Source: a virus (lineage: Duplodnaviria > Caudoviricetes). Taken from it: a stretch of 52,775 nt of DNA. Below, piece after piece: positions 114-37,619 of this stretch. The position numbers and the translations under genes were made by a program. The notes below the pieces were generated by a model. It saw only the letters and a list, made by a program, of their open reading frames with translations, made no database searches and was not told the DNA's origin. Every line of letters begins with the position of its first letter. The stretch's first letter is position 1. Location: the IMG/VR virus record IMGVR_UViG_3300030329_004607, positions 1-52,775 of that record. One strand, given 5' to 3'.

Positions 114-918
114 ATTGCTTACGTTCTTCTAATTTTGATAATGGCCAACGAGACGGCCAAATAGGTTTGCCATCTTCAATTGCTTTTTGTGTATAAACTT
201 CCCATGAGTACGATTCCCCAGTCTTTTCAGCATCTCTTGCCCCCATGACTAACCCATTTAAGAATGAATCCCAATGGACGATAGTGCCATTACACCACAA
301 GAATCCATTCTTATCAAAATCAATTGCTGGGAAAACAGCTGCAGTTACCCAGTTTTTAATTTGCTGTCTAGCCTCTGGAGTCTTTGTATTTAGTTCAGAT
401 TCAAAATCATCAAGCACCATTCCAGTGAATCGTGTTGATAATTGTTTTTTACCTCTAAGTCGCTGATTAGCTCCCTTTGCTATCATCCTACAGCCATTTG
501 ATAAAGTAAACTCGGCTTTTGTCCATTTGTTCCCTTGCATGTCTCCAAAATAGTAATGTATTGCAGGATTGAGTTCTATATGGTTCATAACCCAAGATAA
601 ATTGTCAATTGCTTGATCTTGTGCCTCACCAATCCATGCTATAAATTCTGGTCTATCTTGAGTGGCAAATAAGAAACGATGAAGAATAGCAGTTGATGCT
701 AATGTTGATTTAGCGTGGTCACGTGGCAAGACAAGTCCAATTTGTTGTTTTGTCTTGTCTAAAAGCAACTTCCCTACCTCTACGTGGAAATCAGGTGTCG
801 CAGAAGCAAGGAAGTCCTGAGGAGAGAAAAGTTTTCCAAAAGTAATAAGATTAGTATGAGCAGCAACTAAGGCTTCTTCATTCTTTGATACATCTCCATT
901 TAAGTTTAAATTAGCCAA
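1..918 (-). CDS. terL: Terminase large subunit, N-terminal ATPase part (continues at 52662 to 52018; ~520 aa total)
   Basis: Manual translation from TTG at 918: MANLNLNGDV...; Walker A-like LPRDHAKST, Walker B GMVLDDFESE; in frame with the 52018..52731 ORF. Confidence 0.93.
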   Translation of the reverse strand, partial: MANLNLNGDVSKNEEALVAAHTNLITFGKLFSPQDFLASATPDFHVEVGKLLLDKTKQQIGLVLPRDHAKSTLASTAILHRFLFATQDRPEFIAWIGEAQDQAIDNLSWVMNHIELNPAIHYYFGDMQGNKWTKAEFTLSNGCRMIAKGANQRLRGKKQLSTRFTGMVLDDFESELNTKTPEARQQIKNWVTAAVFPAIDFDKNGFLWCNGTIVHWDSFLNGLVMGARDAEKTGESYSWEVYTQKAIEDGKPIWPSRWPLSKLEERKQFYIDSGTPAKFYQEYMNQAKSPEDQIFAEEDINESLYR

Positions 919-1065
919 TTAATGCCTTGCTATTTCAACAGCCATTGAAACATAGGCATGAACCAATTGCATTATATAATTAACATCACGTAATATTAAA
1001 AATAATATTATTATGATTAAAATCATCCATGCTATTGATATTAGTTTACTTATGTCTATTTTCAT
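919..1065 (-). CDS. 48-aa single-TM protein (lysis cassette candidate)
   Basis: Manual translation MKIDISKLISIAWMILIIIILFLILRDV...; abuts the TerL start. Confidence 0.6.
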   Translation of the reverse strand: MKIDISKLISIAWMILIIIILFLILRDVNYIMQLVHAYVSMAVEIARH

Positions 1066-1285
1066 AAATTATGTGTTCACAAACATCTTCTTCACAATCA
1101 TAGTCATCTTTATGTCCAAAATGAAAATGATCTACTTCACAGTACTTTGGGCAAAAATCATACCCAGATACTCTAACCATCAACGTATCCCCACCTCCAA
1201 GTGCCTGTGGCTTTGGTTTTACCCTGTCTGTCTCCCAGGCAATGAATCCAGCCATTAAAATCATGAATAGTGTCTGCGTTAGCAC
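1046..1285 (-). CDS. Small secreted or membrane-anchored Cys/His-containing protein
   Basis: Hydrophobic N-terminus, CPKYC..HFH.GH..C...C; packed in operon with overlapping start/stop. Confidence 0.6.
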   Translation of the reverse strand: MLTQTLFMILMAGFIAWETDRVKPKPQALGGGDTLMVRVSGYDFCPKYCEVDHFHFGHKDDYDCEEDVCEHIIYENRHK

Positions 1286-1425
1286 TATTTCTTACCATAA
1301 ACGAAAACCCCAATATTTAGACAACCGATTATAAAAACGAACCATGTTCCACCCATATGCCACATGTAGAGATTAAAAAGCCCCACAAATAGATTCAATA
1401 GGCGTAACTTGTCCCTTTTTGTCAC
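1285..1425 (-). CDS. 46-aa two-TM holin-like protein
   Basis: Manual translation MTKRDKLRLLNLFVGLFNLYMWHMGGTWFVFIIGCLNIGVFVYGKK; GTG overlaps the endolysin stop. Confidence 0.6.
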   Translation of the reverse strand: MTKRDKLRLLNLFVGLFNLYMWHMGGTWFVFIIGCLNIGVFVYGKK

Positions 1426-1811
1426 TTTAATTCAAAATGTACCAGGTCATCAAAGTTATTATCTGATAAATCATTATCTCCATCCCAGTCGCCACCCCAA
1501 CGAATTGGGATGTTCAACCTCCAAGCTACACCTTTAACGAAACCAGCAAAATAACTGAACCGCTCTCTGTCTTCCCAATCAATTGGATATGGTGCAACAT
1601 CAACAGCTATTGATGGTTTTTTGTTATGCTTACCTTTTGGCCACCTTAATTGTGAATTACCTTCAGCGTAAGCCTTATTTTGGTCTTTTTCACCTCTATG
1701 CCCCACCAATATTGAACAATCAAATGCTTTTACTACCTCATTAAAAAGCAATTGCAACTTTTCATCGCAAGTTTTTAGGCGTTTACGAGATGATCTTCCA
1801 AATTTTGCCAT
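1422..1811 (-). CDS. Endolysin, peptidase M15 (L-Ala-D-Glu peptidase type)
   Basis: Motifs GHRG..DQ, KH...AVD, WGGDW, D..HFEL typical of M15C phage endolysins. Confidence 0.9.
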   Translation of the reverse strand: MAKFGRSSRKRLKTCDEKLQLLFNEVVKAFDCSILVGHRGEKDQNKAYAEGNSQLRWPKGKHNKKPSIAVDVAPYPIDWEDRERFSYFAGFVKGVAWRLNIPIRWGGDWDGDNDLSDNNFDDLVHFELK

Positions 1812-2053
1812 TATGCATCTCCTCTTTGTCCATCTTTTCCCATGAACTTTGTTAAATGGTTATCAGTATCAAATTCAGACTCACAATGAGGGCAAAGCCA
1901 ACCAATAACTTCGTCATAATCACCAAGTAAGCCCACTCTTTGAGTATAGGTGTCATCTAAGTACAAATCTTCCTTGCAAATTGGACAAGGATCAACAATT
2001 TCACTCTTCTGAGTCTTTTTCGACATGTGCGATGAGCTCTGGCTCTCCATGTT
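1811..2053 (-). CDS. Small zinc-ribbon protein (start uncertain)
   Basis: CPIC...CPHC motifs; lies between terS and the endolysin. Confidence 0.6.
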   Translation of the reverse strand, partial: NMESQSSSHMSKKTQKSEIVDPCPICKEDLYLDDTYTQRVGLLGDYDEVIGWLCPHCESEFDTDNHLTKFMGKDGQRGDA

Positions 2054-2765
2054 TTTTAACTCCTTCCAGCTGCTCAGGTGAAAAACCAACCCAAGCTGTG
2101 ACTTGTTCTGTCTTTTTGTCTTCAGTATCGAATAAACCTAACATTTTAGCTAAACTATCAAGAGCTTTAAGCTTATGGGTGTCATTTTCAGCCATATCAG
2201 CAATTGTCTTGTATCTTTCGACAACATACTCTGGAGTAGCATCATGTTCTTTGAGTACTGCAAGAATCTCTTTTCTAACCATTTTTTGAATTGTCTCCGT
2301 TTTTAGAAGTTTTTCTGTTCTCCTCTTTATGTAATTCTCATTTTTAGCATCAGGGTACGCCATTTTGTATGCATCAAGGATTTTTACACCACTAGCCACA
2401 TATCTAGCAAATAACAGTTCTTTGGAATTCCGCCCACGTTTATTGAATTCTTGTTGGCTAATGTTCTTTCCAGAGAATGTGTATATGTTTTCAGCTATAC
2501 CATCATCACCCAGCATTTCTTTATTCATGTCCTCAGCAAGGAATGTTCCGCAAACAGTGCGGACACAGGAAAAAGTCTTACTTCCTCTTTTTAATTTAGA
2601 TTTTTTTAGGATTTGACACACAAAACCATCATCAGTAAATACCCACTCACCCTCATCACCATGTCTCCAGTTATGACGGACAGGTATACTTGGATGGTGA
2701 ACAGCGAATTCTCCTTTGTTATCAAATAGATAGTGCTTTGTGTTTTTTATTTCTTTGAAATCCAT
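2001..2765 (-). CDS. terS: Terminase small subunit with N-terminal extension
   Basis: C-terminal half LFARYV...AYKMAY...KLLK...KLKALDSLAKMLGLF resembles TerS; heads the operon leading to terL. Confidence 0.75.
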   Translation of the reverse strand: MDFKEIKNTKHYLFDNKGEFAVHHPSIPVRHNWRHGDEGEWVFTDDGFVCQILKKSKLKRGSKTFSCVRTVCGTFLAEDMNKEMLGDDGIAENIYTFSGKNISQQEFNKRGRNSKELLFARYVASGVKILDAYKMAYPDAKNENYIKRRTEKLLKTETIQKMVRKEILAVLKEHDATPEYVVERYKTIADMAENDTHKLKALDSLAKMLGLFDTEDKKTEQVTAWVGFSPEQLEGVKKHGEPELIAHVEKDSEE

Positions 2766-2770
2766 GGTAA

Positions 2771-2799
2771 AATATACGTCAGTTTTTTAAATTTTACAA
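2771..2799 (-). promoter_or_regulatory. sigma70-like promoter of terS (TTGTAA-17-TATATT), probably leaderless
   Basis: -35 at 2794-2799, -10 at 2771-2776, ATG 5 nt downstream, no SD. Confidence 0.55.
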
Positions 2800-2806
2800 A
2801 TTTCCT

Positions 2807-2888
2807 GCTTTATATAATATATAGTATATAATATATAATATATAATAAAGTTCCTTTAATACAGTTTATATTGCTGAACAGTGTGCAA
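2807..2888. repeat. Copy A of a duplicated AT-tract plus 35-bp element (origin-like)
   Basis: GCTTTA, ~40-nt near-pure A/T tract, AATAAAG, then a core 32/35 identical to 9797-9831. Confidence 0.7.
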
Positions 2889-3061
2889 GAGATCACAAAA
2901 GTTGAAAAAAATGTCCGTTTTCAAAAAAATTGGATTAGAATGAGTGCAGTCCTTTCTTTATCCGCATACACCCCCAAACCTTTCCCTCTAGGGTTACGAA
3001 TTTAGTTGAAATTTTCGTTTAATTATAATATTAGTTGCTTTTTGCGTGTAATTTGATGAAA

Positions 3062-3092
3062 GGAAACAAAAAACCGCCCATTTAGGCGGTTT
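3062..3092 (-). terminator. Intrinsic terminator for the leftward early operon
   Basis: Stem AAACCGCC/GGCGGTTT with a T-run on the - strand. Confidence 0.75.
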
Positions 3093-3191
3093 AATGTTTT
3101 AGTGTGTTAATGTGTCAATGTGATTGAATGCGAGGCTTTAAATACCTTATGCATACGCAAACAATATAATGCGTATTAATACCCACTTACA

Positions 3192-3821
3192 TCACAAGTT
3201 ATCATTATCAATAATACATAGAGCGTTATCTTCATTTAGCATTAAATCACCTAATGCACCATCATTCATTTCATATTTATCAAGCATAAAAAACCATACT
3301 TTATTTTGGTTTGGGTTATGCTCAAAAAACTCATCCGCTTCCTTTTTATATTCCTTTGGTATTCTATCTTGATGCAACTTGATAGCCTTATGATTTAACT
3401 CATGCTTTAACTCTTTGTTTTCGGTTTCTTTTAATTCATTCGCAAGTTTCCAATCATCAATCTCATTATCTTTCTTTTTTATTATCTCTTTATTTTTATC
3501 CGCTAGCCATTTATTATCTTTATTCAATGACTTGATGTCATCCTCTTGGTCTACAACCGCAAGTTTTAACTCTTTAACTTGTTGTTTTAACTTTATATTT
3601 TCCTCTTTTATTTCGGCTTTCTTTACGTATGCATCCGCTAAAAATACTTGCTTTTCCGCTTTTATTCTTTTTAACTCTTTTATTTCATCTTTTAGTTTAT
3701 CAATACATTCAACATAATCAACGTGACCATCTTCCGCAATGCTTAACTCGTTTCTTAATACATCGATAACATCCCATAAATATCTATTGTTTTCTACTTT
3801 CTTTATTGATTGAAATTTCAT
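3192..3821 (-). CDS. Early coiled-coil protein, unknown function
   Basis: 209-aa ORF, heptad-rich K/E sequence, purine-rich RBS upstream. Confidence 0.8.
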   Translation of the reverse strand: MKFQSIKKVENNRYLWDVIDVLRNELSIAEDGHVDYVECIDKLKDEIKELKRIKAEKQVFLADAYVKKAEIKEENIKLKQQVKELKLAVVDQEDDIKSLNKDNKWLADKNKEIIKKKDNEIDDWKLANELKETENKELKHELNHKAIKLHQDRIPKEYKKEADEFFEHNPNQNKVWFFMLDKYEMNDGALGDLMLNEDNALCIIDNDNL

Positions 3822-3823
3822 TA

Positions 3824-4000
3824 TTAATCATCCTTTCTATTTATAAAATTAATAAACCTTGAAGAATCAAAGTTTGAATTGTCTTGTCTAAATATTACAA
3901 TTAAATCATTTATTAAACTTGATTTACTAACACAATCGGAGCATTGTTCGTTGTCACGTATAGCATTAGCAAACTTTATAAAATGCTTTCTTGTCATCAT
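3824..4000 (-). CDS. 58-aa early protein of the MTRKHF...DN..FD..RF phage type
   Basis: Manual translation MMTRKHFIKFANAI...QDNSNFDSSRFINFI; strong SD GAGGAGG. Confidence 0.7.
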   Translation of the reverse strand: MMTRKHFIKFANAIRDNEQCSDCVSKSSLINDLIVIFRQDNSNFDSSRFINFINRKDD

Positions 4001-4002
4001 AA

Positions 4003-4176
4003 TTACACCTCCTCGTTTATAGTTTCTAAATATTCGTCTAAATCTCTTCGTTCACTTATTACATCATTTAAATTAATCTCTTCACCATCTACAATTATAA
4101 ACATATCATCATCGTCATTTATTGTAAATTGATAGTTGTTTAATGTTTCTAAGTAATTAATATTATTGAGTTTCAT
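4003..4176 (-). CDS. 57-aa acidic early protein
   Basis: Manual translation MKLNNINYLE...INDDDDMFIIVDGEEINL...EEV; SD GAAAGGA. Confidence 0.65.
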   Translation of the reverse strand: MKLNNINYLETLNNYQFTINDDDDMFIIVDGEEINLNDVISERRDLDEYLETINEEV

Positions 4177-4266
4177 TTTATTCCTTTCATTTAATTAATT
4201 GGTTAATCAAATATATAACATATTGTTAATATAAAAATACATTTATTTTTTAATTATAAATAATAC

Positions 4267-4295
4267 TTGCATATGATATTTATTTAATGTATTAT
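4267..4295 (+). promoter_or_regulatory. sigma70-like early promoter (TTGCAT-17-TATTAT)
   Basis: Near-consensus hexamers, 17-nt spacer, AT-rich upstream, divergent intergenic region. Confidence 0.65.
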
Positions 4296-4407
4296 TACTC
4301 GTTCGCTTTTTGACAAAGAGAGATTATTAAGGGAAAGTAGTTAGGAAAGATATGCTCTTAATAATGGATAAAATCACTCATAATAATAAAGTAAAGGAAA
4401 GAAAATA

Positions 4408-4824
4408 ATGAAAGATTATAGTAAATTACTTGGTTTTGAGAAGAAAGCATCTTCAAGGGGTATAAGAACAAATTTAACTCTTGAAGGTAAAATCACAAAA
4501 CGTCTTGGGGAAGTTATAAGGGAAACATTAACAAGTGAATTTTCCGAGTATTTCCACGAAATTGATTCAACTACAATGATGAAACAGGACAAAGATGGTA
4601 ACTTACAAGATATTACTGATGATAGTGGATATAGAGTTTTAATCCCACTAAATGAAAAAGTAACTCTTCGTAATGGTAAAAACAAAGAAGTTTTAGCCAA
4701 TGCGGTTCGTGTAGGTGATCCACAAGTTTATCTCAAAGGTATTAAGCATTGGGTTTGTGAGTACATTAAATTAAATGGTAAAACTCATACATTCAAAGAT
4801 GGTAAACTAACTCAAACAAAGTAA
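4408..4824 (+). CDS. Immediate-early protein, unknown function
   Basis: 138-aa ORF with its own promoter, SD (AAAGGA) and terminator. Confidence 0.8.
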   Translation: MKDYSKLLGFEKKASSRGIRTNLTLEGKITKRLGEVIRETLTSEFSEYFHEIDSTTMMKQDKDGNLQDITDDSGYRVLIPLNEKVTLRNGKNKEVLANAVRVGDPQVYLKGIKHWVCEYIKLNGKTHTFKDGKLTQTK

Positions 4825-4852
4825 TATTAGCCAAGTAGTACAATAAACCAAC

Positions 4853-4890
4853 AAGCCCCTACTGATACAAATCGGTAGGGGTTTTTTGTT
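4853..4890 (+). terminator. Intrinsic terminator
   Basis: AAGCCCCTACTGAT/ATCGGTAGGGGTTT stem followed by TTTTGTT. Confidence 0.85.
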
Positions 4891-4934
4891 AATAAAATTT
4901 TATTATTATTAAACCACAAAGGAAAGGAAAAGAG

Positions 4935-5093
4935 ATGAGTAACTCAATGTTTGCTGAATTTCATAGTTCAGATGAATACAAAGAAGCATACAAGTCAGTA
5001 ATGGATAATACCATTAAAGATAAACAATTTGAACTTGTAGTGTTTATTGAAAGATTGAGAGCAACATTAATAACTGAAAGGAAAGGAGAGTGA
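4935..5093 (+). CDS. 52-aa hypothetical early protein
   Basis: Manual translation MSNSMFAEFHSSDEYKEAY...; strong SD. Confidence 0.6.
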   Translation: MSNSMFAEFHSSDEYKEAYKSVMDNTIKDKQFELVVFIERLRATLITERKGE

Positions 5094-5094
5094 T

Positions 5095-5403
5095 ATGCCT
5101 GCTTCACCAATAGGAGTAAAATTAAAAGATTATCCAATCAGATGGAAATGGAAACAGAAGGTAATAATACCTGATGAAAATACAAGTACATTCTTTAAAA
5201 TATGGTATGAAGAAAAAGGTGGTGCTGAAAAGAATGACTGGTATGCTTGGTTAATGTGGTGTCCATTTGATGAGCATGGAGTTGATAACTGGGGACACGT
5301 AGAAGAACTGACAAGGGAATCAATAGATATATTAAATACTATTGAAATGGTATTTGATATCAGTTTTCATGACAAAGTAATGGAAGAACTACCATCTGAG
5401 TGA
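5095..5403 (+). CDS. Hypothetical early protein
   Basis: 102-aa ORF, SD AAGGAG. Confidence 0.7.
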   Translation: MPASPIGVKLKDYPIRWKWKQKVIIPDENTSTFFKIWYEEKGGAEKNDWYAWLMWCPFDEHGVDNWGHVEELTRESIDILNTIEMVFDISFHDKVMEELPSE

Positions 5404-5543
5404 TGGAGGAAGAGCAGGGGGTTAACAGATGAAATGCATTTGCTAGGTTTGTTAGCCCTCTGCATTTATTTAACTAAAAAGGAAAGGAAAGGCAATGGAA
5501 AGTAACTGTAATGCTAAAAGAATATCAAATGAAAGGATAACAA

Positions 5544-5723
5544 ATGGAAAATAAATACATCAATCTGCCAATATCAAATGATATGCAGGTACAAGTTAAA
5601 GTAGAACATGAGGGCATTGTTGTAGATGTCTTTAAACAGGAAGAAATAATAGCAACAACATATAAGTTTTTTCATGAATTAGGAATAAATGTAAAGGAGA
5701 TGACAGATGAAACTATTAACTAA
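5544..5723 (+). CDS. 59-aa hypothetical early protein
   Basis: Manual translation MENKYINLPI...EHEGIVVDVF...; SD AAAGGA. Confidence 0.6.
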   Translation: MENKYINLPISNDMQVQVKVEHEGIVVDVFKQEEIIATTYKFFHELGINVKEMTDETIN

Positions 5724-6021
5724 AGAAGTAATAAAGAAAGCAACAAAACAATATACCAAAGGCTCTGACATGGATGAGCAGATGGTAGTAGCCAAGTTCT
5801 TTGATGCTTGGGGTGACTGGAAATGGTATCTAATGAATATGAAGGATGAAACTGGTGACTATGCTTGGGGTATAGTTAAAGGTTTTGATGTAGAGATAGG
5901 TTCATTCAGTTTAACAGAACTTAAACAGGTTCTTGGACTAAGACTTGAACGTGATATGTATTTTGAGCCAATGAAGGCATCTGATGTATTTAATAAACTA
6001 AACAAAGGGGAGCATGTGTAA
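5707..6021 (+). CDS. DUF2958-like protein
   Basis: VVAKFF..W.WY, AWG.V.G..VE.GSFSL.EL, LERD.YF pattern. Confidence 0.75.
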   Translation: MKLLTKEVIKKATKQYTKGSDMDEQMVVAKFFDAWGDWKWYLMNMKDETGDYAWGIVKGFDVEIGSFSLTELKQVLGLRLERDMYFEPMKASDVFNKLNKGEHV

Positions 6022-6233
6022 TGATAATAGATAACCCAAATCATATAGAACTGTATAGAATGATGGTACAACGTCAAGCACTTAAACTACAGATGAAAGG
6101 AATAAAGACAAGAGGTAGGTCTGCTTATTCTTTGATTAAAGAGCAGTATGGTCTTAAAGGTAATATTGCTAAAGTGTATGAGCAGTTCACTATAATAATA
6201 GAAAAAGCCAAACAAATAGAAAGGATGTTTTAA
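6021..6233 (+). CDS. Hypothetical basic early protein
   Basis: 70-aa ORF translationally coupled to neighbours. Confidence 0.7.
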   Translation: MIIDNPNHIELYRMMVQRQALKLQMKGIKTRGRSAYSLIKEQYGLKGNIAKVYEQFTIIIEKAKQIERMF

Positions 6234-6234
6234 A

Positions 6235-6675
6235 ATGAATATAAAAGATAAGATGTTTAAGATATTAAAAGATACAAGAGATTGGTATGCAGAAGACCCA
6301 AAAGGAAGAAGGTCTTTAGATAAAGATGGGAACTGCCTATTTACTTGGGGAAAAAATCACTGCGCAGTTGGTAGATATTTAAAATCAAAATATCAAATTG
6401 AGAACTGGCGTGATAACAATGAATCTGTTAATGAATTAACTGATGACAGTTTAGAAGAAGGTTGTTATAATATAGACTGGGCTCTACGTGATGAGGTTCA
6501 TGGACTTGACCCAGACTTTTGGACACATATCCAAGAATTCCATGACACCAGACATTACTGGCATACTAAAACTGAAAACTGGGACAATGAAACTGATAAA
6601 GGATTATCTTTTCATGGTAAAGATAAATATTATGAAATTCTAAGTAACATAACAGATGGTAAATATGATGAATGA
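6235..6675 (+). CDS. Hypothetical protein (C..CAVG..QEFHD motif)
   Basis: 146-aa ORF in early operon. Confidence 0.7.
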   Translation: MNIKDKMFKILKDTRDWYAEDPKGRRSLDKDGNCLFTWGKNHCAVGRYLKSKYQIENWRDNNESVNELTDDSLEEGCYNIDWALRDEVHGLDPDFWTHIQEFHDTRHYWHTKTENWDNETDKGLSFHGKDKYYEILSNITDGKYDE

Positions 6676-6949
6676 AGAATATAAGTTTCATTGTAATGGC
6701 TGTCAAAAACCTGATAAAGACTTTCCAAATAGGTTTCAAGACTATGAGGTAGGTAAAGAAATACATAACTGTCCACCTGTTACTGAACACAGGTGGGCAA
6801 GAAGGGATATATATGCTATCTATACAGGGCTATATTGTGATGATTGCTATAATAGTGGAGATTCTGATAAATATCCATACAGAAAAGATAGCTATGCTAA
6901 AGACTTGGAATTTGGAGAACATATATATCCAGAAGAAGAGAGGTATTAA
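6668..6949 (+). CDS. Cys-rich hypothetical protein
   Basis: CNGC and CDDC pairs; start uncertain. Confidence 0.6.
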   Translation: MNEEYKFHCNGCQKPDKDFPNRFQDYEVGKEIHNCPPVTEHRWARRDIYAIYTGLYCDDCYNSGDSDKYPYRKDSYAKDLEFGEHIYPEEERY

Positions 6950-7094
6950 ATATGGGTAAGATGAAAAGACTATGGGAGTGGTTTCAAGAAAATGAAAATA
7001 AAATAAACAAGAAAGGGGATGATGGATTTAATAATATATATGATATTTATCTTCATAATAGCAAACATAATAATGGAAATAAGAAAGGGGTAAA

Positions 7095-7334
7095 ATGATA
7101 CAGTTTGAATACAATAATACAATGAAGAGATATGATGTTAAAGTACCATATAATCTTGCTGAAGAAAAACAAGAAATGGTAGTAGTTGCATCAATATCTG
7201 AACAAAGTAAACTAAACTTACTCAGAGAATTGTCAATACCATTAGTTAGACAAATATTACTTAATTGGGATGAATATGAACATCAGATGTCAAGAGAGTT
7301 TGATGATTTGTTTGAAGAGAAAGGAGAAAAATAA
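7095..7334 (+). CDS. Hypothetical protein
   Basis: 79-aa ORF with SD. Confidence 0.65.
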   Translation: MIQFEYNNTMKRYDVKVPYNLAEEKQEMVVVASISEQSKLNLLRELSIPLVRQILLNWDEYEHQMSREFDDLFEEKGEK

Positions 7335-7840
7335 TGGGATTTGATTTATATGGAATGAAACCAGAAGCAAATACACCTGAACCTGAATGGACTAAAGGTG
7401 ACCCTTATATTTCAACTGATATAGAGGGTATAATGCAAGTTGACCCACAGGTAAAAGAAGAATATGATGACTATATAAAAGAAAAAATAAAATGGCAGGA
7501 AGTAAATGGTGGTGCATACTTTAGAAGTAATGTATGGTACTGGAGACCTTTATGGGAATTTGTTTGCACAGTTTGTAATAATGTACTTACATATGATGAT
7601 TATAAAAAAGGTAATTGGAATGATGGTCATAAAATAAGTAAAACAAAAACTAAACGAATAGCAAGCAGATTAAGAGTATTATTAAACAATGGTACAGTTA
7701 ATTCTTATGAAAGATTTCATAAAGAGTGTAAAGATGAGCTTGATGACAAAAACTGGGACAAAAGCTACCCATTTAGCGTAGAGCACGTCAAAGAATTTGA
7801 AAGGTTCTGTGAGAAATCTGGAGGCTTTGAAATACATTAA
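7334..7840 (+). CDS. Conserved phage hypothetical protein (MGFDLY...YFR.NVW.WRPLW...SGGF)
   Basis: 168-aa ORF; motif pattern of a type I recall from phage early regions. Confidence 0.75.
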   Translation: MGFDLYGMKPEANTPEPEWTKGDPYISTDIEGIMQVDPQVKEEYDDYIKEKIKWQEVNGGAYFRSNVWYWRPLWEFVCTVCNNVLTYDDYKKGNWNDGHKISKTKTKRIASRLRVLLNNGTVNSYERFHKECKDELDDKNWDKSYPFSVEHVKEFERFCEKSGGFEIH

Positions 7841-7853
7841 ATAACTAATAATT

Positions 7854-7928
7854 AAGGGGGTGGGCTTGTAGGCTGGTTACCTACTGCAAGTGTTTTGTAT
7901 TTCCTTGCACCTTTCTACCCACCCTCTT
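7854..7928 (+). ncRNA. Candidate three-way-junction cis-regulatory RNA
   Basis: Closing stem AAGGGGGTGGG/CCCACCCTCTT encloses GTAGG/CCTAC and TGCAAG/CTTGCA hairpins. Confidence 0.5.
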
Positions 7929-7949
7929 TTAACTGAAAGGAGAAAAATA

Positions 7950-8960
7950 ATGATTGTCTATAAAGTAACAAACTGTGTAAATAATAAAGTTTATATTTGT
8001 GTGTCTGGTTACTCAATAAACCATGCTAAATCTTGTAAGATTTCTGAAGCGATGTCAAAACCAAGAAAAATGAAACTAAAAGATGCCTACACTGGAAAAT
8101 CACCATTCAGTAAAGCAATACTTAGATATGGAGAGCATAATTTTAAATTTGAGCTACTACATAGTCGTGTATCAAAGAAAAGGGCTTATGATTTAAAAAA
8201 GAAATATATCAAAGAGTATGATGCTATGAATCCTAAATATGGATATAATTGTACAACTGGGGGATTGGAATCATTTAAAAATGCAAACCATGTTATTGAT
8301 AGATTAACTGTGGCACATACAGGAAAAAAACAGCCTGATTCTTATGTAAAACTTATGAAAGCAAGGGTGGGAGAGTTAAATCCTTGTTTTGGAATTAAGC
8401 ATTCAAAACAATCACGAGAGAATATGAGGAAGGGACAACTAAACTCCAACTATGTCCAATCAGAGGAAACTAAAAAAAGAAAAAGTGAAACAATGAAAAG
8501 AAGATGGCAAGAGCCAGAGGTTATTAAAAAGATGGCAAAACGTAAAAGGGGAGAGGTAACAGAGGAAACTCGTAAAAAGTTAAGCAAAGCAAGTAGTGGT
8601 AAAAATAATGCTATGTATGGTAAAACAGGAGCATTGAATCCTAATTATGGCAAATCAACCCCTCAGTGGCATAAAGATATAATTTCTAAGAAAAACAAAG
8701 AACATGCAAAAAAGAGAAGAGAGCTTTTAATAAAGAAATATAGCCAAAGAACAGAAAAAAAATGTACGCAGTGCGGTAAGGTTAAATCTGTAAATGATTT
8801 TTATAAAAGCTATAACAATGGCATTGATCCTATTACAGCAAGATGTAAACCTTGTGAAAAAATTAGGACGAGAGAAAAATATTATAGATTGCGATCACCA
8901 AATAAAGTTAAAAATCGTTATGGCAAGTTAATTAAAGACATTATAAAGGAGAATAAGTGA
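7950..8960 (+). CDS. Free-standing GIY-YIG/NUMOD3 homing-endonuclease-like protein, degenerate active site, C-terminal Zn finger
   Basis: IVYKVTN..NNKVYIC, GYN motif, NUMOD3-like SEETKKRKS and TEETRKKLS..GKNNAMYGK repeats, CTQC...CKPC; ATG 7950 follows SD AAGGAG. Confidence 0.8.
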   Translation: MIVYKVTNCVNNKVYICVSGYSINHAKSCKISEAMSKPRKMKLKDAYTGKSPFSKAILRYGEHNFKFELLHSRVSKKRAYDLKKKYIKEYDAMNPKYGYNCTTGGLESFKNANHVIDRLTVAHTGKKQPDSYVKLMKARVGELNPCFGIKHSKQSRENMRKGQLNSNYVQSEETKKRKSETMKRRWQEPEVIKKMAKRKRGEVTEETRKKLSKASSGKNNAMYGKTGALNPNYGKSTPQWHKDIISKKNKEHAKKRRELLIKKYSQRTEKKCTQCGKVKSVNDFYKSYNNGIDPITARCKPCEKIRTREKYYRLRSPNKVKNRYGKLIKDIIKENK

Positions 8961-9232
8961 AAATAATAACTAAAGATACTGCTAGAAAATATATATATGA
9001 AAGTAGTGGGAAAATATTTGCTGCTGTATTTACAAAGAAAAATGGAGAGAAAAGAAAGATGGTATGCAGACAAGGTGTAGCTAAATATGTTACAGGAAAA
9101 GGACTAAAGTTTAAGCCAGAAGAAAGAAATCTCATTGGTGTATTTGATATGCATAAGAAAGCATACAGATTTATCAATGTAAAGACACTACAGTCTCTTA
9201 AAGTGAAAGGCAAAGAATACAAAGTTACTTGA
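8957..9232 (+). CDS. WYL-like / SH3 beta-barrel phage protein (DUF2693-like)
   Basis: F.KKNGE.R.M...VFD..K.AYR pattern. Confidence 0.65.
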   Translation: MKIITKDTARKYIYESSGKIFAAVFTKKNGEKRKMVCRQGVAKYVTGKGLKFKPEERNLIGVFDMHKKAYRFINVKTLQSLKVKGKEYKVT

Positions 9233-9257
9233 GACAATAGTGAGACAAAAGTGATAC
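9230..9257 (+). repeat. Tandem 11-bp direct repeats TGAGACAAWAG (operator candidate)
   Basis: TGAGACAATAG TGAGACAAAAG TGATAC upstream of the RHH gene. Confidence 0.5.
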
Positions 9258-9365
9258 TCTCTTCGATATAAAAAAATATTTAATATATTTATAAAAATAT
9301 TTAGGTGGTATCAAATAATGTAATGTAAATTTTAACATCATCAAAAATGAGATTATAGGAGACTT

Positions 9366-9518
9366 ATGAGAGAAAATAATAATGAAAGGGAATTTTCACA
9401 TTTCCAATTCAAAGTACCGCACAAACTATGGAATAAATTCAAAATAAAGTCCATTAAAGACAATAGCCCTACGTATAGAGAGAAACTTATCGAATTGATA
9501 GAAAACTACGTAGGATAA
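9366..9518 (+). CDS. 50-aa ribbon-helix-helix-like regulator
   Basis: Manual translation ...FSHFQFKVPHKLWNKFKIKS...YREKLIELIENYVG; SD AGGAG. Confidence 0.65.
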   Translation: MRENNNEREFSHFQFKVPHKLWNKFKIKSIKDNSPTYREKLIELIENYVG

Positions 9519-9521
9519 GCT

Positions 9522-10346
9522 ATGTTTGAGGAAATTTATCAAGAATATTTATTACATAAAAACGAAGAAAACAGAAAAAAAAGATATGATGGTAAGGAAA
9601 GCTGGTATCATGCAAGTGGAGCAGGATTCTGTTCTCGCAAACTTTATTATCAATCTGTAGAAAAAGCAAAGCCTACAAATCCTTCAAAAAAAGCAAATAT
9701 GAGAATCATGAGAATGGGAACTTTGATTCATAAAGATTTTGAGGAAGCTTTAATATATTATAATAATATAAATAATAATAATATAAATAAAGAATACTTT
9801 AATACAGTTAATATCGCTGAACAGAGTGCAAAGGAATTTGCGGTGGAAAGGATTGAAAATATAGTAACCGAAGAAGAAATCAAACTACCTGAGTTCAATG
9901 TTAGAGGTTTTTATGATGTACTTTTGCAAACTTCTTCGGCAGACAATCAGAAGGCTAACAGGCTATATGATGTAAAAACAATATCTAATTGGGGATTCAG
10001 ACAGAAATTTAAACCAACAAAAGGATTTTCATCAGAAAATAGAAATCATTTCTTGCAAATTGGGACTTATGGGTTAGCAGTTAAAGAGAAATATGGCTCA
10101 CTAGACAGCATGGGAATTATTTATTATAACAAAGATAATTCTTCAATGCATTCTCAGAGCGTTCCAATGAAATATTTGGACACAGCAAGAAGATATTGGT
10201 TTTCTATTAAAGAAGAGCATGATAAAGGATTACCACCTTTTCAGCTTGGAGTATCACCAGCTTATTTCTGGTGCTGTGAAAAGTATTGTGAGTTTAAAGA
10301 TCACTGCAATCCACCTAACTTTAAAAGAAATAAGGAGATAAGATGA
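9522..10346 (+). CDS. Cas4-like PD-(D/E)XK exonuclease
   Basis: S.AG.C.R, G..D, DVKT, Q...Y and C-terminal C..YC.F...C cluster ligands; lies upstream of the Sak/SSB pair. Confidence 0.8.
   Translation: MFEEIYQEYLLHKNEENRKKRYDGKESWYHASGAGFCSRKLYYQSVEKAKPTNPSKKANMRIMRMGTLIHKDFEEALIYYNNINNNNINKEYFNTVNIAEQSAKEFAVERIENIVTEEEIKLPEFNVRGFYDVLLQTSSADNQKANRLYDVKTISNWGFRQKFKPTKGFSSENRNHFLQIGTYGLAVKEKYGSLDSMGIIYYNKDNSSMHSQSVPMKYLDTARRYWFSIKEEHDKGLPPFQLGVSPAYFWCCEKYCEFKDHCNPPNFKRNKEIR
9747..9831. repeat. Copy B of the duplicated AT-tract plus 35-bp element, inside the exonuclease CDS
   Basis: Same architecture as 2807-2888; encodes low-complexity YYNNINNNNINKEYFNTVNIAEQSA. Confidence 0.7.
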
Positions 10347-10594
10347 GTAAACTAAATGATTTTATGTTGCAATTTGGCGCAGATAAATTCATGCATTTTG
10401 CAGGTGGTGCATGTGTAATGGCTATCACTAACAGTTGGATAATGCTTGGAATAGTGGCGATAGGTAAGGAAATTTACGATTACAAGGATTATGGGCTATT
10501 TAGTAAGGCTGACGTAATTGCTACTGTTTTAGGTGGGCTATTTGCCTATTTTGCAGCAATTTGTTGGAAACTATTACCATTCACATTAGTTTAA
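10343..10594 (+). CDS. YfiM/VanZ-like small membrane protein
   Basis: DK..HF, GKE..D, D...T..GG motifs with TM segments. Confidence 0.65.
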   Translation: MSKLNDFMLQFGADKFMHFAGGACVMAITNSWIMLGIVAIGKEIYDYKDYGLFSKADVIATVLGGLFAYFAAICWKLLPFTLV

Positions 10595-10603
10595 GGAGAT
10601 TTA

Positions 10604-10858
10604 ATGAGAGACTTACCATTAATGTATGGCAGTGGATCAAGGCTAATGATCATTAATATTTATAAAGAGCAGTTAAGTAAGTTTGAGAAAATAGGGTTAG
10701 GTAATTATACTGAGCATAATACTTTAATAACAGAAAAGTTAATTAAAACTACTGAAAAGCGTTTAGCTCAACTATCTACTGCCTATGAGGCATCTTTAAC
10801 GCCAGCTGCTGAACTTTGGAGAAGAAAAAGAGATGAAGGAGAGATGTATGACAGATAA
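10604..10858 (+). CDS. Hypothetical protein, paralog of 13529..13735
   Basis: 84-aa ORF, SD AAGGAG. Confidence 0.7.
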   Translation: MRDLPLMYGSGSRLMIINIYKEQLSKFEKIGLGNYTEHNTLITEKLIKTTEKRLAQLSTAYEASLTPAAELWRRKRDEGEMYDR

Positions 10859-11396
10859 AACAAACTACTTTGTAGAATTAGATAGAGTAGACGTAACAAA
10901 ACACATAGAAAAGAAAGGTAGATTTAGCTACCTTAGTTGGACATTTGCAGTTAGAGAATTAAAAACATTACATCCAACTGCTACTTGGACAATACATGAA
11001 TGGGAAGGTGTTCCGTTCATTAAGACTGAATGTGGCTATTTTGTAAAGGTTACTGTGGACGTAGATGGTATTGAAATGACTCAAGTACATCCAGTTTTAG
11101 ATAATGCAAATAAATCTGTTGAACAGCCAAATGCTTTTCAAATAAATACAAGCATTCAAAGATGCTTAACTAAGGCAATAGCACTACATGGTCTTGGTAT
11201 TCATATTTATGCAGGTGAAGATTTACCTCAAGTAACACCGCTTGATAATTTGCAAAAAAAAGAATTATTTAATGTTTTAGAAACTCGTAAGGCTGATAAA
11301 AAACTTACAGATAAAGTTATAGAACAAATAAATAATGGAACAATAAACCAGAGTAATTATCTTGATGCAATGAAACATTACTCTACAAATGGGTAA
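10848..11396 (+). CDS. sak: Sak-like single-strand annealing protein (DUF1071 type)
   Basis: EKKG..SYLSW..A, PVLD..N, INTSIQRCLTKAIALHGLG..IYAGEDLP. Confidence 0.88.
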   Translation: MTDKTNYFVELDRVDVTKHIEKKGRFSYLSWTFAVRELKTLHPTATWTIHEWEGVPFIKTECGYFVKVTVDVDGIEMTQVHPVLDNANKSVEQPNAFQINTSIQRCLTKAIALHGLGIHIYAGEDLPQVTPLDNLQKKELFNVLETRKADKKLTDKVIEQINNGTINQSNYLDAMKHYSTNG

Positions 11397-11406
11397 GGAG
11401 AAAAAT

Positions 11407-12036
11407 ATGTCAACAATGACTGAAACACTAAAAGATGAGGCTTTATTTATTCCAAGTGAAGCCAATAATTCAAATAATAAACCAGAATATATTCCTAAGA
11501 CATCAGGAGATTATTTAGGTCATATTGTAGATGCTAGAACAATAACAAGGGAATTTCAGAAAGATGGAAGAACCTTTAAAGCACGTATATTTAACTTTAA
11601 AATACATGTTGCACCTGAAAACAAAGGAATGACGTATACTATTACAAGTAGTGATGGTTCAAGCAAAGATGTTACTGGTGAACATTATGTTGATTGGACT
11701 ATAATAGCTGATGGTGTATTTAGATTTTTAGAGCCAGGACATGAAGATTCTTTTGAATCTAATGCAGAGGGAAATAAAAAATACTTAATGTTTTGTGAAT
11801 CTCTTGGCATGGAAATTAAAACTGAAGATAGAACTGTTAATGATCGTACTGTAAGAGTTCAGATTCTTCCAGATTTAAAAGAAGAAGATTTAAATGGTAC
11901 TCCTGTAATTGCTGTTGTTGGACGTGGTAAAGATTGGGTTAATGATGAGGGAAAAACAAGGAGATCATGGAGATGTAAGTTTACTAAAAGATGGGCAGAA
12001 GGAAAGAGGTTACAAACTGATGATCTTCCGTTCTAA
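11407..12036 (+). CDS. Single-stranded DNA-binding protein-like
   Basis: Follows Sak; OB-like pattern, C-terminal DDLPF tail. Confidence 0.7.
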   Translation: MSTMTETLKDEALFIPSEANNSNNKPEYIPKTSGDYLGHIVDARTITREFQKDGRTFKARIFNFKIHVAPENKGMTYTITSSDGSSKDVTGEHYVDWTIIADGVFRFLEPGHEDSFESNAEGNKKYLMFCESLGMEIKTEDRTVNDRTVRVQILPDLKEEDLNGTPVIAVVGRGKDWVNDEGKTRRSWRCKFTKRWAEGKRLQTDDLPF

Positions 12037-12154
12037 TTTAAAAAAGACCATTGCAAGATTTCTTGTTAGAGGTCTTAGACGTAGACCAAATTCTGTTGCA
12101 AAGTTTTTAAACATAAGTAGAGCAACAGTTTATAGGTACATTAAGAATTCGTAA
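12020..12154 (+). CDS. 44-aa helix-turn-helix protein
   Basis: VAKFLNISRATVYRYI, Hin/resolvase-type HTH. Confidence 0.7.
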   Translation: MIFRSNLKKTIARFLVRGLRRRPNSVAKFLNISRATVYRYIKNS

Positions 12155-12155
12155 T

Positions 12156-12423
12156 GCATGATGGTGATCATTTACGCTAATCTTGATTCATGCTAGAGAC
12201 GAATACTGGCTGAAAGTTGCAGTATAAAAACTTCAATATATTTGAGGACTTTTACAAGAGGCATCAGAAAGGGTGTCTTGGTAGAAAGTCTCCGAAGATT
12301 GAAACCTTAACAAGTATTAGTCCTCAATGAAATTTAACAATGAGATGAGCAGGTACGCTTCCTTTATATTGACCTTAATGAGCTATCCGCACAATACCTA
12401 CACAGCTACCTGCTCTATTCTCA
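12156..12423 (+). ncRNA. Structured intergenic RNA candidate (four stem-loops)
   Basis: GCATGA/TCATGC, ATACTG/CAGTAT, TTGAGGACT/AGTCCTCAA and GAGCAGGTA/TACCTGCTC stems. Confidence 0.45.
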
Positions 12424-12558
12424 ATGACTGAAGAATTTTTAGAAATAATAAGAAATCTTTTACGAGAAAATAATGAATTAAAAAAAAGATTGAGTGTAAT
12501 GGAAGAAATATTGCATTCATATTTGCCAATAATAGAAAAGGAGAAAAAAGATGGGTAG
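12424..12558 (+). CDS. 44-aa coiled-coil peptide
   Basis: Manual translation MTEEFLEIIRNLLRENNELKKRLSVMEE...; overlaps the next start. Confidence 0.5.
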   Translation: MTEEFLEIIRNLLRENNELKKRLSVMEEILHSYLPIIEKEKKDG

Positions 12559-12775
12559 AGCAATAGACATGGAAAACAGACAAGATGATTTTGATCGTAG
12601 ATTAAAACTTGTCGAAGGTGCATTAGAAGAACTTGTTCAGACAAAGATACATCATGTAGATTTACATGAGAGCACAAAAGAGGTTCTAAGTAAATCAACT
12701 GAAATAAAGCCAGACGAAACATTTGAAAAACCTAAAGCAAAGAAAAGAGCTAAAGCAAAAGCAGAGAGTGCCTAA
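12551..12775 (+). CDS. Hypothetical protein, basic C-terminus
   Basis: 74-aa ORF, SD AAGGAG. Confidence 0.7.
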   Translation: MGRAIDMENRQDDFDRRLKLVEGALEELVQTKIHHVDLHESTKEVLSKSTEIKPDETFEKPKAKKRAKAKAESA

Positions 12776-12816
12776 AAGTCCAGCACAAAAGATTAGAGAT
12801 TACTTTATAAAGAAAT

Positions 12817-13053
12817 ATGGCAGCACAAAGGATATATTTATTAGAAAAAAAACCTCTGGGAGTATACAGGTGTCAGAGGTGCGGAGAAAACACAAAGAAA
12901 AGTAAATTTATCTGGAAGAGTTGGTTCTCTAATCATGAAAGCATAATATGTAGAGAGTGTGCCTATAAGGAATCATTTGGCACAAAAAATATTAAACAAG
13001 CAAAGAAAGAACGAATACTTGAAACGAAAAGCATTAACCAAAAAAGAGATTGA
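12817..13053 (+). CDS. Zinc-finger protein
   Basis: CQRC...CREC. Confidence 0.6.
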   Translation: MAAQRIYLLEKKPLGVYRCQRCGENTKKSKFIWKSWFSNHESIICRECAYKESFGTKNIKQAKKERILETKSINQKRD

Positions 13054-13228
13054 ACAGGCAATTAACGGACTCAGTAATAATGATCAGTATATTCATAATA
13101 AATTACTACAGATAGATAGTCTTTTTGGCTTATATTTAGAGTACAGAAAAGAAACTGAAAAGTTTAATGAGTACGTCAATTCAAGGGCAAAAGAGTTTGA
13201 GCAAAAACAATCTGAAAATAAAAAGTGA
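13019..13228 (+). CDS. Hypothetical helical protein (TTG start probable)
   Basis: In-operon ORF. Confidence 0.6.
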   Translation: MKRKALTKKEIEQAINGLSNNDQYIHNKLLQIDSLFGLYLEYRKETEKFNEYVNSRAKEFEQKQSENKK

Positions 13229-13586
13229 ACTTGATGTTGTTTACATAGATTCTGGTGGAACTAAACACTTAGAATATAAGAAAGCTTTGTGTGCAGAGGC
13301 ACAAATAGAAGGTTGTAGACAGCGTAAATTAGAACAAAAAAAGAGGATTATGGATATAGTAGACTTAATATTGCGAGTCCTAAAAAGTGAAAATTGGGGA
13401 GTCTTTTATAAGAATCAGCCAATACAACCGCTAGAACTACAGGGTGGTGATTCACTTTACAAGGTGAACCAAGTTGACGAATCTCACGTAGAAGAAATGT
13501 TAAATGAGGCGTTAGCGAAAGGAGAATCTTGGCAGGAATCTTCGCAGACAGATTCGAGTCAGAGCAAGAACTCCATGACTGGTTAA
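13167..13586 (+). CDS. Hypothetical protein
   Basis: 139-aa ORF. Confidence 0.6.
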   Translation: MSTSIQGQKSLSKNNLKIKSELDVVYIDSGGTKHLEYKKALCAEAQIEGCRQRKLEQKKRIMDIVDLILRVLKSENWGVFYKNQPIQPLELQGGDSLYKVNQVDESHVEEMLNEALAKGESWQESSQTDSSQSKNSMTG

Positions 13587-13735
13587 TATCTTTTTATGAG
13601 GGGCAATTAAGAAAGCTCCTAAATGATATTGGTGGCACAACAGAATATGGTGTAAAAATTACACCACGTGTTATCAAGGTCACCATGGACAGGTATTCAC
13701 AGTTATTGGAGAAAGATAATGTTACTGATTGGTGA
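13529..13735 (+). CDS. Hypothetical protein, paralog of 10604..10858
   Basis: TTG start with SD AAGGAG; shared Y..QL.K...G..TE....IT...I..T..R..QL. Confidence 0.65.
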   Translation: MAGIFADRFESEQELHDWLISFYEGQLRKLLNDIGGTTEYGVKITPRVIKVTMDRYSQLLEKDNVTDW

Positions 13736-14627
13736 TTGTTTTAAAAAGATAGATGAAATAGAAGAAAGCTCTGTTCAAGCAATAGTAACCTCACCACCTT
13801 ATTGGGGTCTTCGTGACTATAAGAAGGATGGTCAGTTAGGTGAAGAACTTGTTCCAGAGGATTTTGTAAATAGGCTTACTGCATTTTTTAATAAGTGTAA
13901 ACGTGTTCTTAAAGATGATGGTACTTTGTGGGTGAATATTGGAGATACTTATTTTGGAGCTAAAGGTGGCCATTGGGAGGGTGGTAATTCCATCACTAAC
14001 AATGCTACTGGCGACAATTATAGAATGCACCGAAAAGCACCCCCTAAGCACAGTAGATTGAAGACAAAGGACTTAACTGGTGTACCTTGGATGTTAGCGT
14101 TTTCTCTTCAAAAAGATGGATGGTATTTACGTCAAGATATTATATGGCATAAACCAAATCCAATGCCAGAGGCAGTTAAAGATAGATGTGTTAAATCACA
14201 TGAGTATATTTTCTTACTGTCATTAAAACCAAAATATTACTTTGATTATGAGGCAATACAAGAACCAGCTGTTTACGCTGGTGATAATAGAGCATCAAGG
14301 AAAGATAACAGAAGAGATGAACCTTTAAATTCTCACATGGCAGCCACTTCGCAGCCAGTAAAAGAATTTAGAAATAAAAGAGATGTTTGGTCAATTAATA
14401 CTGCTCAATCTGGTGAAGCACATTTTGCTGTTTTTCCAGAAAAGATTCCTGAGCTTTGCATAAAAGCTGGAACAAGAGAAGGAGACTTAGTTTTAGACCC
14501 TTTTATGGGTAGTGGTACAACTGCAACTGTGGCAAAAAGGTTAAGTAGAAATTGGGTAGGCATAGAACTAAATGAAGAATATGCTAAATTTATTAACACT
14601 AAAACATCACAGGAGGAATTATTTTAA
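13719..14627 (+). CDS. DNA methyltransferase, N4-C/N6-A, beta class
   Basis: Catalytic TSPPY N-terminal, IIW.KPNP, HFA.FP, SAM-binding LDPFMGSGTT C-terminal. Confidence 0.92.
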   Translation: MLLIGDCFKKIDEIEESSVQAIVTSPPYWGLRDYKKDGQLGEELVPEDFVNRLTAFFNKCKRVLKDDGTLWVNIGDTYFGAKGGHWEGGNSITNNATGDNYRMHRKAPPKHSRLKTKDLTGVPWMLAFSLQKDGWYLRQDIIWHKPNPMPEAVKDRCVKSHEYIFLLSLKPKYYFDYEAIQEPAVYAGDNRASRKDNRRDEPLNSHMAATSQPVKEFRNKRDVWSINTAQSGEAHFAVFPEKIPELCIKAGTREGDLVLDPFMGSGTTATVAKRLSRNWVGIELNEEYAKFINTKTSQEELF

Positions 14628-14628
14628 T

Positions 14629-14799
14629 ATGAAAAAGAAATGTTTTAACTGTGAATATACTCTCTATATAAATCCTAATGGCTTATGTAATAAGTGTCAA
14701 AAAATATATGATAAAAAAATAATCAAAGCTCTTAATAAACGTAATCAAAGAAAGACTCCTTACCCTGTTGGATTTGAATATAAAAAGGAGAGAAAATGA
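14629..14799 (+). CDS. Small zinc-finger protein
   Basis: CFNC...CNKC; SD AGGAGG. Confidence 0.55.
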   Translation: MKKKCFNCEYTLYINPNGLCNKCQKIYDKKIIKALNKRNQRKTPYPVGFEYKKERK

Positions 14800-23612: not shown

Positions 23613-23631
23613 TTATCTATTTTACCTTATC

Positions 23632-25140: not shown

Positions 25141-25141
25141 T

Positions 25142-26107: not shown

Positions 26108-26108
26108 A

Positions 26109-27305: not shown

Positions 27306-27322
27306 AATTTATTCCTTTACTT

Positions 27323-30582: not shown

Positions 30583-30734
30583 TATAATAATCCTTTAATT
30601 ACTTTTTTGATCTTAGCCCAAGCTTTATCATCTTTTTTAGTTTTAGTTGCTTTAACAGCTATATCTCCAATTATGATTAATAGTCTAAGCATACCATGCT
30701 TTTTTATAAGTCTTCCTATTACTAAATTTAACAT
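30582..30734 (-). CDS. 50-aa small membrane-associated protein
   Basis: Manual translation MLNLVIGRLIKKHG...TKTKKDDKAWAKIKKVI. Confidence 0.6.
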   Translation of the reverse strand: MLNLVIGRLIKKHGMLRLLIIIGDIAVKATKTKKDDKAWAKIKKVIKGLL

Positions 30735-31128: not shown

Positions 31129-31143
31129 CCATGCCTCCTAACA

Positions 31144-31299: not shown

Positions 31300-31300
31300 A

Positions 31301-32068: not shown

Positions 32069-32069
32069 A

Positions 32070-37187: not shown

Positions 37188-37196
37188 AATTACTCC

Positions 37197-37577: not shown

Positions 37578-37619
37578 TTTATTTCTCCTTTACTCTAAGC
37601 CATGACTGGCGTGAATGAG

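Follow-up and report, generated by a model that had tools for sequence, protein, structure and literature searches.

A conserved purge of the trinucleotide CAG/CTG from a small gene module of uncultured marine phages

Selection on the phage DNA that enters the cell first is known from a few cultured models, with single restriction sites at stake. In phage T5, EcoRI and CRISPR (clustered regularly interspaced short palindromic repeats) systems act solely on the pre-early DNA (10.1101/866236; PMC5389539; PMC12455610). For Murciavirus, a T7-like phage of marine Marinomonas, a Type I motif matters solely in the leading region, and the phage escapes the Type I enzyme when this region alone lacks the motif (PMC12455610). 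Here we analyse the complete IMG/VR virus record IMGVR_UViG_3300030329_004607 (52,775 nt, 33.4% GC; hereafter the window), in which a small gene module adjoining the small terminase gene (terS) is cleared of the trinucleotide CAG and its reverse complement CTG over 1.6 kb. The likeness to Murciavirus is that of a motif tolerated elsewhere in the genome that must be missing from a first-injected, hypervariable region; the difference is that a 7-base bipartite Type I site is involved there, with one or two copies at stake (PMC12455610), while the marine phage group studied here presents an extreme form, in which a 3-base word expected ~45 times is fully erased from a whole module and every module gene is recoded. 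Sub-genomic target avoidance in leading DNA is an already known kind of phenomenon. As far as our literature searches show, no publication describes a trinucleotide that is totally erased, with CpG forced in as compensation.

The CAG/CTG purge is real, strongly selected and conserved. Across the window the two words occur at 1420 sites, or one per 37 nt, and the 1638 nt from the CAG at 2947 to the CAG at 4585 are without any of them; the second-largest gap in the window is 381 nt. This strict desert (2950–4584, assigned to no strand) had been picked out by eye in a first-pass annotation, and the whole-window count bears out both the absence itself and the remark that just two sites follow from 4585 to 4860, which lie at 4585 and 4616, the next site being at 4862. 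The density of the remaining genome predicts 45.5 sites inside the gap, and a first-order Markov model built on the region's own dinucleotides predicts 19, in agreement with the annotation's estimate of roughly 20. Measured against the 32 reverse-complement trinucleotide classes, the gap amounts to 44.1 mean spacings vs 19.5 for the runner-up, and it also ranks first when all classes of 2- to 5-mers that have 25 sites or more are compared (log10P of about −16.6 vs −7.6 for the next).

Within genes, the purge is enforced by codon choice. Outside the module, 1015 of the 1168 sites (87%) in 30 long open reading frames (ORFs) have the form xCA|G or xCT|G, in which a codon for Ser, Pro, Thr or Ala precedes one starting with G. 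At such xCN|G junctions the third base is A or T in 1015 of 1048 cases outside, in none of 10 in the window module (6 G, 4 C) and in none of 68 in 34 leftward ORFs of relatives. The annotation's claim of codons that dodge the motif therefore holds, and it extends to other codons: Gln is written CAG in 83 of 587 cases outside the module, vs 0 of 10 in the window module and 0 of 64 in the relatives' ORFs, and CTG for Leu, used 16 times outside, is absent from both. In other words, xCG|G or xCC|G takes the place of xCA|G and xCT|G, Gln is solely CAA, and there is no CTG Leu. The junctions themselves are scarcer as well, with 7.75 per 100 codons outside, 2.6 in the window module and 2.3 in the relatives' leftward ORFs, and dipeptides made of Ser, Pro, Thr or Ala followed by Val, Ala, Asp, Glu or Gly are thinned three-fold in the module. 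Since every synonymous choice at an xCN|G junction yields C-N-G, a gene may dodge CAG/CTG or CpG, but never both. The avoidance of CAG/CTG at these junctions thus accounts for a local CpG excess (35 in the desert vs 14.7 expected) and for the enrichment of CCGC/GCGG (110 vs 17 expected in the deserts of 13 genomes taken together, see below). The visible cost of the purge is that a normally avoided CpG is accepted and dipeptides are thinned. A recurring word, GCGGA/TCCGC (6 vs 0.4 expected), contains the core of the B. subtilis Chi site; a Chi reading was dropped, the word being a by-product of writing Ala-Gly, Ala-Asp and Ala-Glu as GCG G..

Codon usage as such does not produce the desert. When the synonymous codons of the four module ORFs were redrawn with genome usage in 2000 simulations, 17.1 sites were predicted with the usage of the 30 long ORFs and 22.6 with that of early ORFs (minima of 10 and 13, respectively) vs 2 observed, both of which fall after 4585. 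Permuting each gene's own codons gave a mean of 6.15 sites and reached zero in 0 of 2000 permutations, so that in the k-mer check with codon-shuffled controls suggested by the annotation the depletion lies beyond the shuffle range.

The large terminase (TerL) of the window has 437 relatives in IMG/VR, which mark an abundant, uncultured, marine phage group, and 80 of their loci were fetched. In the close clade (TerL 86–93% identical), counting loci that extend 4 kb or more upstream of TerL, a syntenic CAG/CTG desert of 956–2138 nt is found in 13 of 13 loci, which is the outcome of the comparison with relatives that the annotation had called for, and the contigs of several additional relatives stop within such a desert. 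Pooled over 13 genomes, the deserts (19.2 kb) contain 0 sites vs 549 expected, and no further trinucleotide is depleted more than two-fold. The eight 4-mer classes that contain CAG/CTG are likewise each at 0 in these genomes vs 91–190 expected. The avoided unit is therefore a 3-mer, avoided on both strands as the annotation had supposed, with the flanking bases irrelevant, and a Type II-like specific site of at least 4 bp does not fit as the avoided word. Of the CWG-type motif proposed by the annotation, the avoidance on both strands stands; the degenerate palindrome is unneeded, since CAG and CTG are reverse complements and avoidance of a single exact trinucleotide in either orientation would look no different.

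The zero count has been held through gene turnover. In blastn comparisons with relatives, alignments cover the flank near terS and some of the promoter region but hardly touch the interior, and the relatives' modules carry differing mixes of a few small gene families. In a sister clade (TerL 79–82% identical to that of the window and 85–92% to that of the complete genome G011) large deserts are patchy, with one of 845 nt in G011, in which CAG/CTG once more gives the leading k-mer gap, and one of 2094 nt in locus L180. Even so, each of the 10 sister-clade homologues of one small module gene, which we call family B, lies within a CAG/CTG-free stretch of 318–2094 nt, and the 10 taken together have 1 site in 1698 nt vs 40.9 expected. 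As the purge surrounds family-B genes in both clades, it belongs to the module, predates the clade split and survives sequence turnover. Beyond this group the trail ends quickly: the INPHARED collection gave no match to 2500–5500 (blastn) or 20000–40000 (megablast), and in tblastn TerL is less than 30% identical to its counterparts in cultured phages. The sister clade also lacks GATC, with 0 vs 164 expected in 55.8 kb of late genes (L056, L073, L049, L063, L064 and L079) and a count of 0 in the complete genomes of 49 kb and 50.9 kb (records G006 and G011), and CCGG and CGCG are likewise absent from the clade; this loss is classical genome-wide restriction-site avoidance.

The borders of the depleted zone follow features of transcription. 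On the right, a strong terminator with a 14-bp stem (4853–4884, plus strand) closes the module of the window, and CAG/CTG density is normal beyond it. The same arrangement is seen in 13 of 13 genomes, where a hairpin with a ΔG of −19 to −24 kcal/mol, followed by TTTTTTGTT, stands 6–20 nt past the stop codon of the first gene of the rightward operon (family C). The family C genes of the window and 12 loci, 13 in all, hold 17 sites in 5.5 kb (~0.3 per 100 nt, vs ~3.5 downstream); counted from the family C start, the density is 0.2–0.8 per 100 nt over 500 nt and then 2.3–4, and the step coincides with the terminator conserved in 13 of 13 genomes. On the left, a conserved box, TAGAATGAGTG (2936–2946, plus strand), is present in the window and each of the 12 relatives examined; it lies near the desert's edge, which ranges from 153 nt before to 85 nt after the box.

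The DNA between the divergent operons is purged as well. The divergent promoter region of the window (4177–4407, 231 nt, 19% GC, no strand assigned) is free of CAG/CTG, and in the 13 genomes such regions contain 0 sites in 3128 nt vs 26.6–31.7 expected; with 45 nt trimmed from each side, the promoter cores contain 0 sites in 1958 nt vs 21.8 expected. Because non-coding promoter DNA is purged too, the selective pressure most likely acts on DNA, not on codons or mRNA, unless the promoter cores are transcribed.

The strict desert thus covers a left non-coding stretch, a bidirectional terminator, three leftward genes, the divergent promoter and 40% of the family C gene. The non-coding stretch (2947–3070, no strand assigned) is conserved in an alignment of 12 sequences, CAG/CTG-free, and contains a TATAAT box and a Shine-Dalgarno-like GAGGAAAGGA word; no Rfam family scored above threshold in 2600–5200, and the 12-sequence alignment showed no conserved RNA fold in this element besides the terminator. 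The intrinsic terminator that ends the leftward operon (3071–3092) was detected in a scan of both strands and acts in both directions by prediction, and its hairpin retains pairing despite two-sided changes in relatives. The last gene of the leftward operon (3192–3821, minus strand) encodes a 209-aa, coiled-coil-rich protein and has 0 sites vs 9.3–11.8 expected from codon resampling. It is preceded by the gene for the 58-aa family B protein (MTRKH..., 3824–4000, minus strand), which has homologues in 16 loci and is modelled as three helices (AF2 pLDDT 84), and by the first gene of the operon (4003–4176, minus strand), which encodes a 57-aa family A protein of the NYGITI type, very acidic here. 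Of the 13 close-clade loci whose desert is complete, 11 gave a family A match by tblastn, L004 being without one; the family A protein has one weak PHROG match whose function is unassigned in PHROG. The 138-aa family C protein (4408–4824, plus strand; AF2 pLDDT 85), whose gene opens the long rightward early operon and carries the two sites at 4585 and 4616, has homologues by tblastn in the window and all 13 of these loci, and 19 in a set of 1.84 billion representatives. None of the module proteins has a PHROG, Pfam or NCBIfam function (the 209-aa protein has no family match at all), the family B and family C models gave no fold match (for family B, none with E ≤ 0.001 in PDB), and an ESM Atlas search with the module proteins gave no usable match.

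This module lies between the heads of the late and the early/middle operons and adjoins terS. From the small terminase gene (2765 to 2001), the late operon extends leftward through the large terminase gene, crosses the record ends and goes on to portal, capsid and tail genes; the record ends have 113 nt of the large terminase gene in common, so the assembly is circular and the position of its break artefactual. Its last gene encodes a 2146-aa protein (23612 to 17172), without PHROG, Pfam or NCBIfam match, that converges on the end of the long rightward early/middle operon (4408 to 17175). The best explanation for the 1.9-kb stretch from the terS-proximal non-coding element to the terminator at 4853–4884 is that of an immediate-early module.

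The purge points to an agent that reads just three bases of module DNA, and no reader of three bases has been described for such a role. We give about an even chance to the reading that the module is the DNA exposed first and has been rid of the 3 nt that a DNA-cutting system targets, an analogy with the cultured models named above. The module alone would be exposed first in the cell, a DNA-cutting system with a recognition that includes these three bases would harm the phage solely during that exposure, and the module products would then neutralise or outrun the cutting system, so that the remaining genome may carry one site per 37 nt. The terminator after the first rightward gene could serve as a pause between two entry steps. 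As would be expected for avoidance in a leading region, the motif is missing from a sub-genomic segment and common elsewhere, both in the window and in the close clade (13 of 13 loci). As to the variability and the functions of the module, little of its interior is aligned by blastn, and its proteins lack a family or fold match.

That the module is the first-injected end, as the first-pass annotation put it, is plausible by comparison with described phages, as the module adjoins terS and a conserved non-coding stretch and has a T5-like divergent layout within an N4-like gene order. The small terminal segment of T5 and BF23 has divergent pre-early operons and then a stop signal, and the window module is similarly laid out. 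It stands at the head of an N4-like order of genes, with the 2146-aa protein at the convergence point where N4 has its giant virion RNA polymerase. The T5 segment differs in that it is ~10 kb long and lies in a long terminal repeat, whereas no long repeat was seen in 437–12000 of the phage here, in that the first 50 kb of T5 are without a trinucleotide desert, and in that two-step entry can only be presumed for the phage here.

Further, weaker avoidance zones start close to the same place. AGCT, with 253 copies genome-wide, is absent from 2493–6890 (4397 nt; 23 expected, log10P −7.6), AGCTG/CAGCT is absent across 7.1 kb (2492–9600), and GATC occurs solely at 2891, 4717 and 8826 within ~6 kb (13.5 expected, a depletion that is weak alone). 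CpG is depleted in the delayed-early genes right after the module (6 vs 26 expected in 4873–7655), the inverse of the CpG-rich module. The CpG pattern recurs in relatives, and the AGCT and GATC patterns vary. Zones with a common border near terS and an unequal rightward reach fit a polar process such as ordered entry; they fit temporal gene classes, too.

Three agents could do the reading, given here from the most to the least probable: CRISPR interference whose protospacer-adjacent motif (PAM) is a trinucleotide, restriction either by a variable Type I enzyme, through its constant 3-bp half-site, or by a frequent cutter, and the phage's own pre-early nuclease for host DNA. The specificities of restriction-modification systems differ between strains. 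With one word conserved across two clades, this variability makes a conserved reader more probable than a restriction enzyme that varies; such a reader might work through a CRISPR PAM or a constant Type I half-site, or might be the phage's own nuclease or the primase. Type I CRISPR systems need a trinucleotide PAM (PMC6568314). Since protospacers may lie on either strand, avoidance on both strands is to be expected under PAM depletion, and in the module a short word is indeed avoided on both strands irrespective of frame. Erasing PAMs would, moreover, be the sole sequence-based escape from CRISPR interference. PAM depletion in phages is reportedly partial and genome-wide, as in the work of Kupczok and Bollback from 2014; here, by contrast, it would be total and confined to one module. 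It is conceivable, although we would not bet on it, that the module is a PAM- or target-erased landing strip against a widespread host surveillance that needs only CAG next to, or as, its target. The surveillance could block such phages solely in the period when the cell contains just the leading module, and every copy of the word would have been deleted at the price of CpG-rich codons and altered proteins.

Several results weigh against first-exposed DNA that is cleared of a cutting target. Termini were looked for in assembled (Logan) contigs from four runs, which gave no molecule ends and no doubled-depth unitig, the sign of a long terminal repeat, in 437–12000, and the contig ends of 64 relatives' loci do not cluster. 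If packaging were headful, the argument from first exposure would fail. A text search turned up no natural CAG/CTG PAM, and no nuclease or restriction system that requires CAG/CTG is known to us, nor any such CRISPR type; a host restriction system or toxin recognising CWG, as proposed by the annotation, was likewise not identified. There is no trinucleotide desert at the leading ends of T7, T5 (first 50 kb) or N4 (first 50 kb), where the k-mer gap test gave a best log10P of −4 to −8. The module proteins match no known anti-defence family or fold, and nothing points to a host, a relative of TerL being absent from a search of one genome per prokaryote species and the window having no tRNA gene. 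If the reading of a cleared, first-exposed module is true, it would offer a purely computational route to locate the leading module and read the host's target motif in uncultured phages, and families A, B and C would be candidates for new anti-defence functions.

Among the explanations that differ from defence by the host, a self-inflicted target is the best placed, though still unlikely. Here a pre-early or virion-delivered nuclease of the phage would degrade host DNA at CAG/CTG, the module, which coexists with it, would have to lack the word, and the remaining DNA of the genome would enter or replicate after the nuclease is shut off. A frequent cutter suits the degradation of host DNA, nickases with 3-nt specificity occur in chlorella viruses, and if the agent is passed on with the phage, the sharing of one purged word by both clades is explained. 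The same idea has been proposed for T5 A1 and the first-step-transfer DNA, as an unproven one (10.1101/866236). It asks, however, for an extra mechanism to spare the ~1400 sites elsewhere and for stepwise entry too, and searches of the module proteins and the 2146-aa virion protein found no nuclease family.

A target in RNA is less probable again. Immediate-early transcripts would be cleared of C-A/U-G as the cleavage word of an endoribonuclease, either the mRNA interferase of a host toxin-antitoxin system or a host-shutoff RNase of the phage. Three-base specificity is usual for mRNA interferases, and the terminator-bounded depleted zone matches transcription units. The promoter cores, not expected to be transcribed, are nevertheless as empty of sites as the genes (see above), and an RNase needs a degenerate middle base where a reader of DNA manages with one exact trinucleotide.

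Barely behind this in probability, and quite improbable itself, is the exclusion of primase sites, by which the module would be free of start sites on both strands, for example beside an origin, for a host DnaG that starts primers at 5'-CTG-3'. This is the recognition trinucleotide of E. coli DnaG, so that the purged word is the same, although it may not be the specificity of the host concerned. Priming by the host is likely from the gene content of the phage: in the scanned ORFs neither a primase nor a DNA polymerase family turned up, whereas inspection of the translation by eye gave a DnaB-type helicase and Pfam matched a Sak annealing protein. An AT-rich 42-nt repeat that would suit an origin stands at 2810–2851, upstream of terS, and again at 9755–9796, inside a PD-(D/E)XK-like gene. 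We know of no case of a primase-site-free zone, and there is no evident selective reason for a priming-free zone with borders that follow terminators. The length of the zone, besides, tracks the gene content of the module (318–2138 nt) and not a fixed distance from a putative origin. The repeat at 2810–2851 is also a place where public contigs break (contigs from four runs).

Least probable of all is an escape from the phage's own methylation, in which a PF01555 methylase (13668–14627; Pfam match, with an SPPY motif read from the translation) would mark C-W-G and the module would avoid the marks because of methyl-dependent restriction or hindered host transcription: the enzyme is encoded in the window, G001 and G011, to which the longest deserts belong, its SPPY motif is typical of N4-cytosine enzymes and CWG is symmetric for cytosine, but the complete relative G006, with no PF01555, PF02086 or PF00145 match, keeps a 428-nt CAG/CTG-free stretch around its family-B gene, and among the 62 loci of at least 8 kb (from 80 fetched around methylase homologues of 42–85% identity) a desert within 10 kb is found solely in the relative L092. 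The methylase is therefore not needed for the purge and is ruled out as its necessary cause. Five records of the sister clade, of which two reach a completeness of 93% or more, lack PF01555 as well as PF02086 and PF00145. That the methylase explains the tolerance of GATC was considered and dropped, as G011 has a homologue, yet zero GATC. Two unrelated viral contigs that were fetched by way of the methylase have deserts of their own, one of TCGA over 10.5 kb (L098, 5348–15819; log10P −17) and one of GTAC over 7 kb (L144, 13905–20889; log10P −11).

Two minor observations concern the window itself. At 3025–3092, the TATAAT box, which is perfect, and the Shine-Dalgarno-like GAGGAAAGGA word, conserved in 12 sequences, lead rightward into the terminator with no ORF; the element might be a short RNA, or else an antisense start that points toward the leftward operon. 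Further downstream, a NUMOD3-type homing-endonuclease-like gene (7890–8960) is an insertion polymorphism, and in two runs from other samples contigs join 7952 to 8958 with 152 other letters between.

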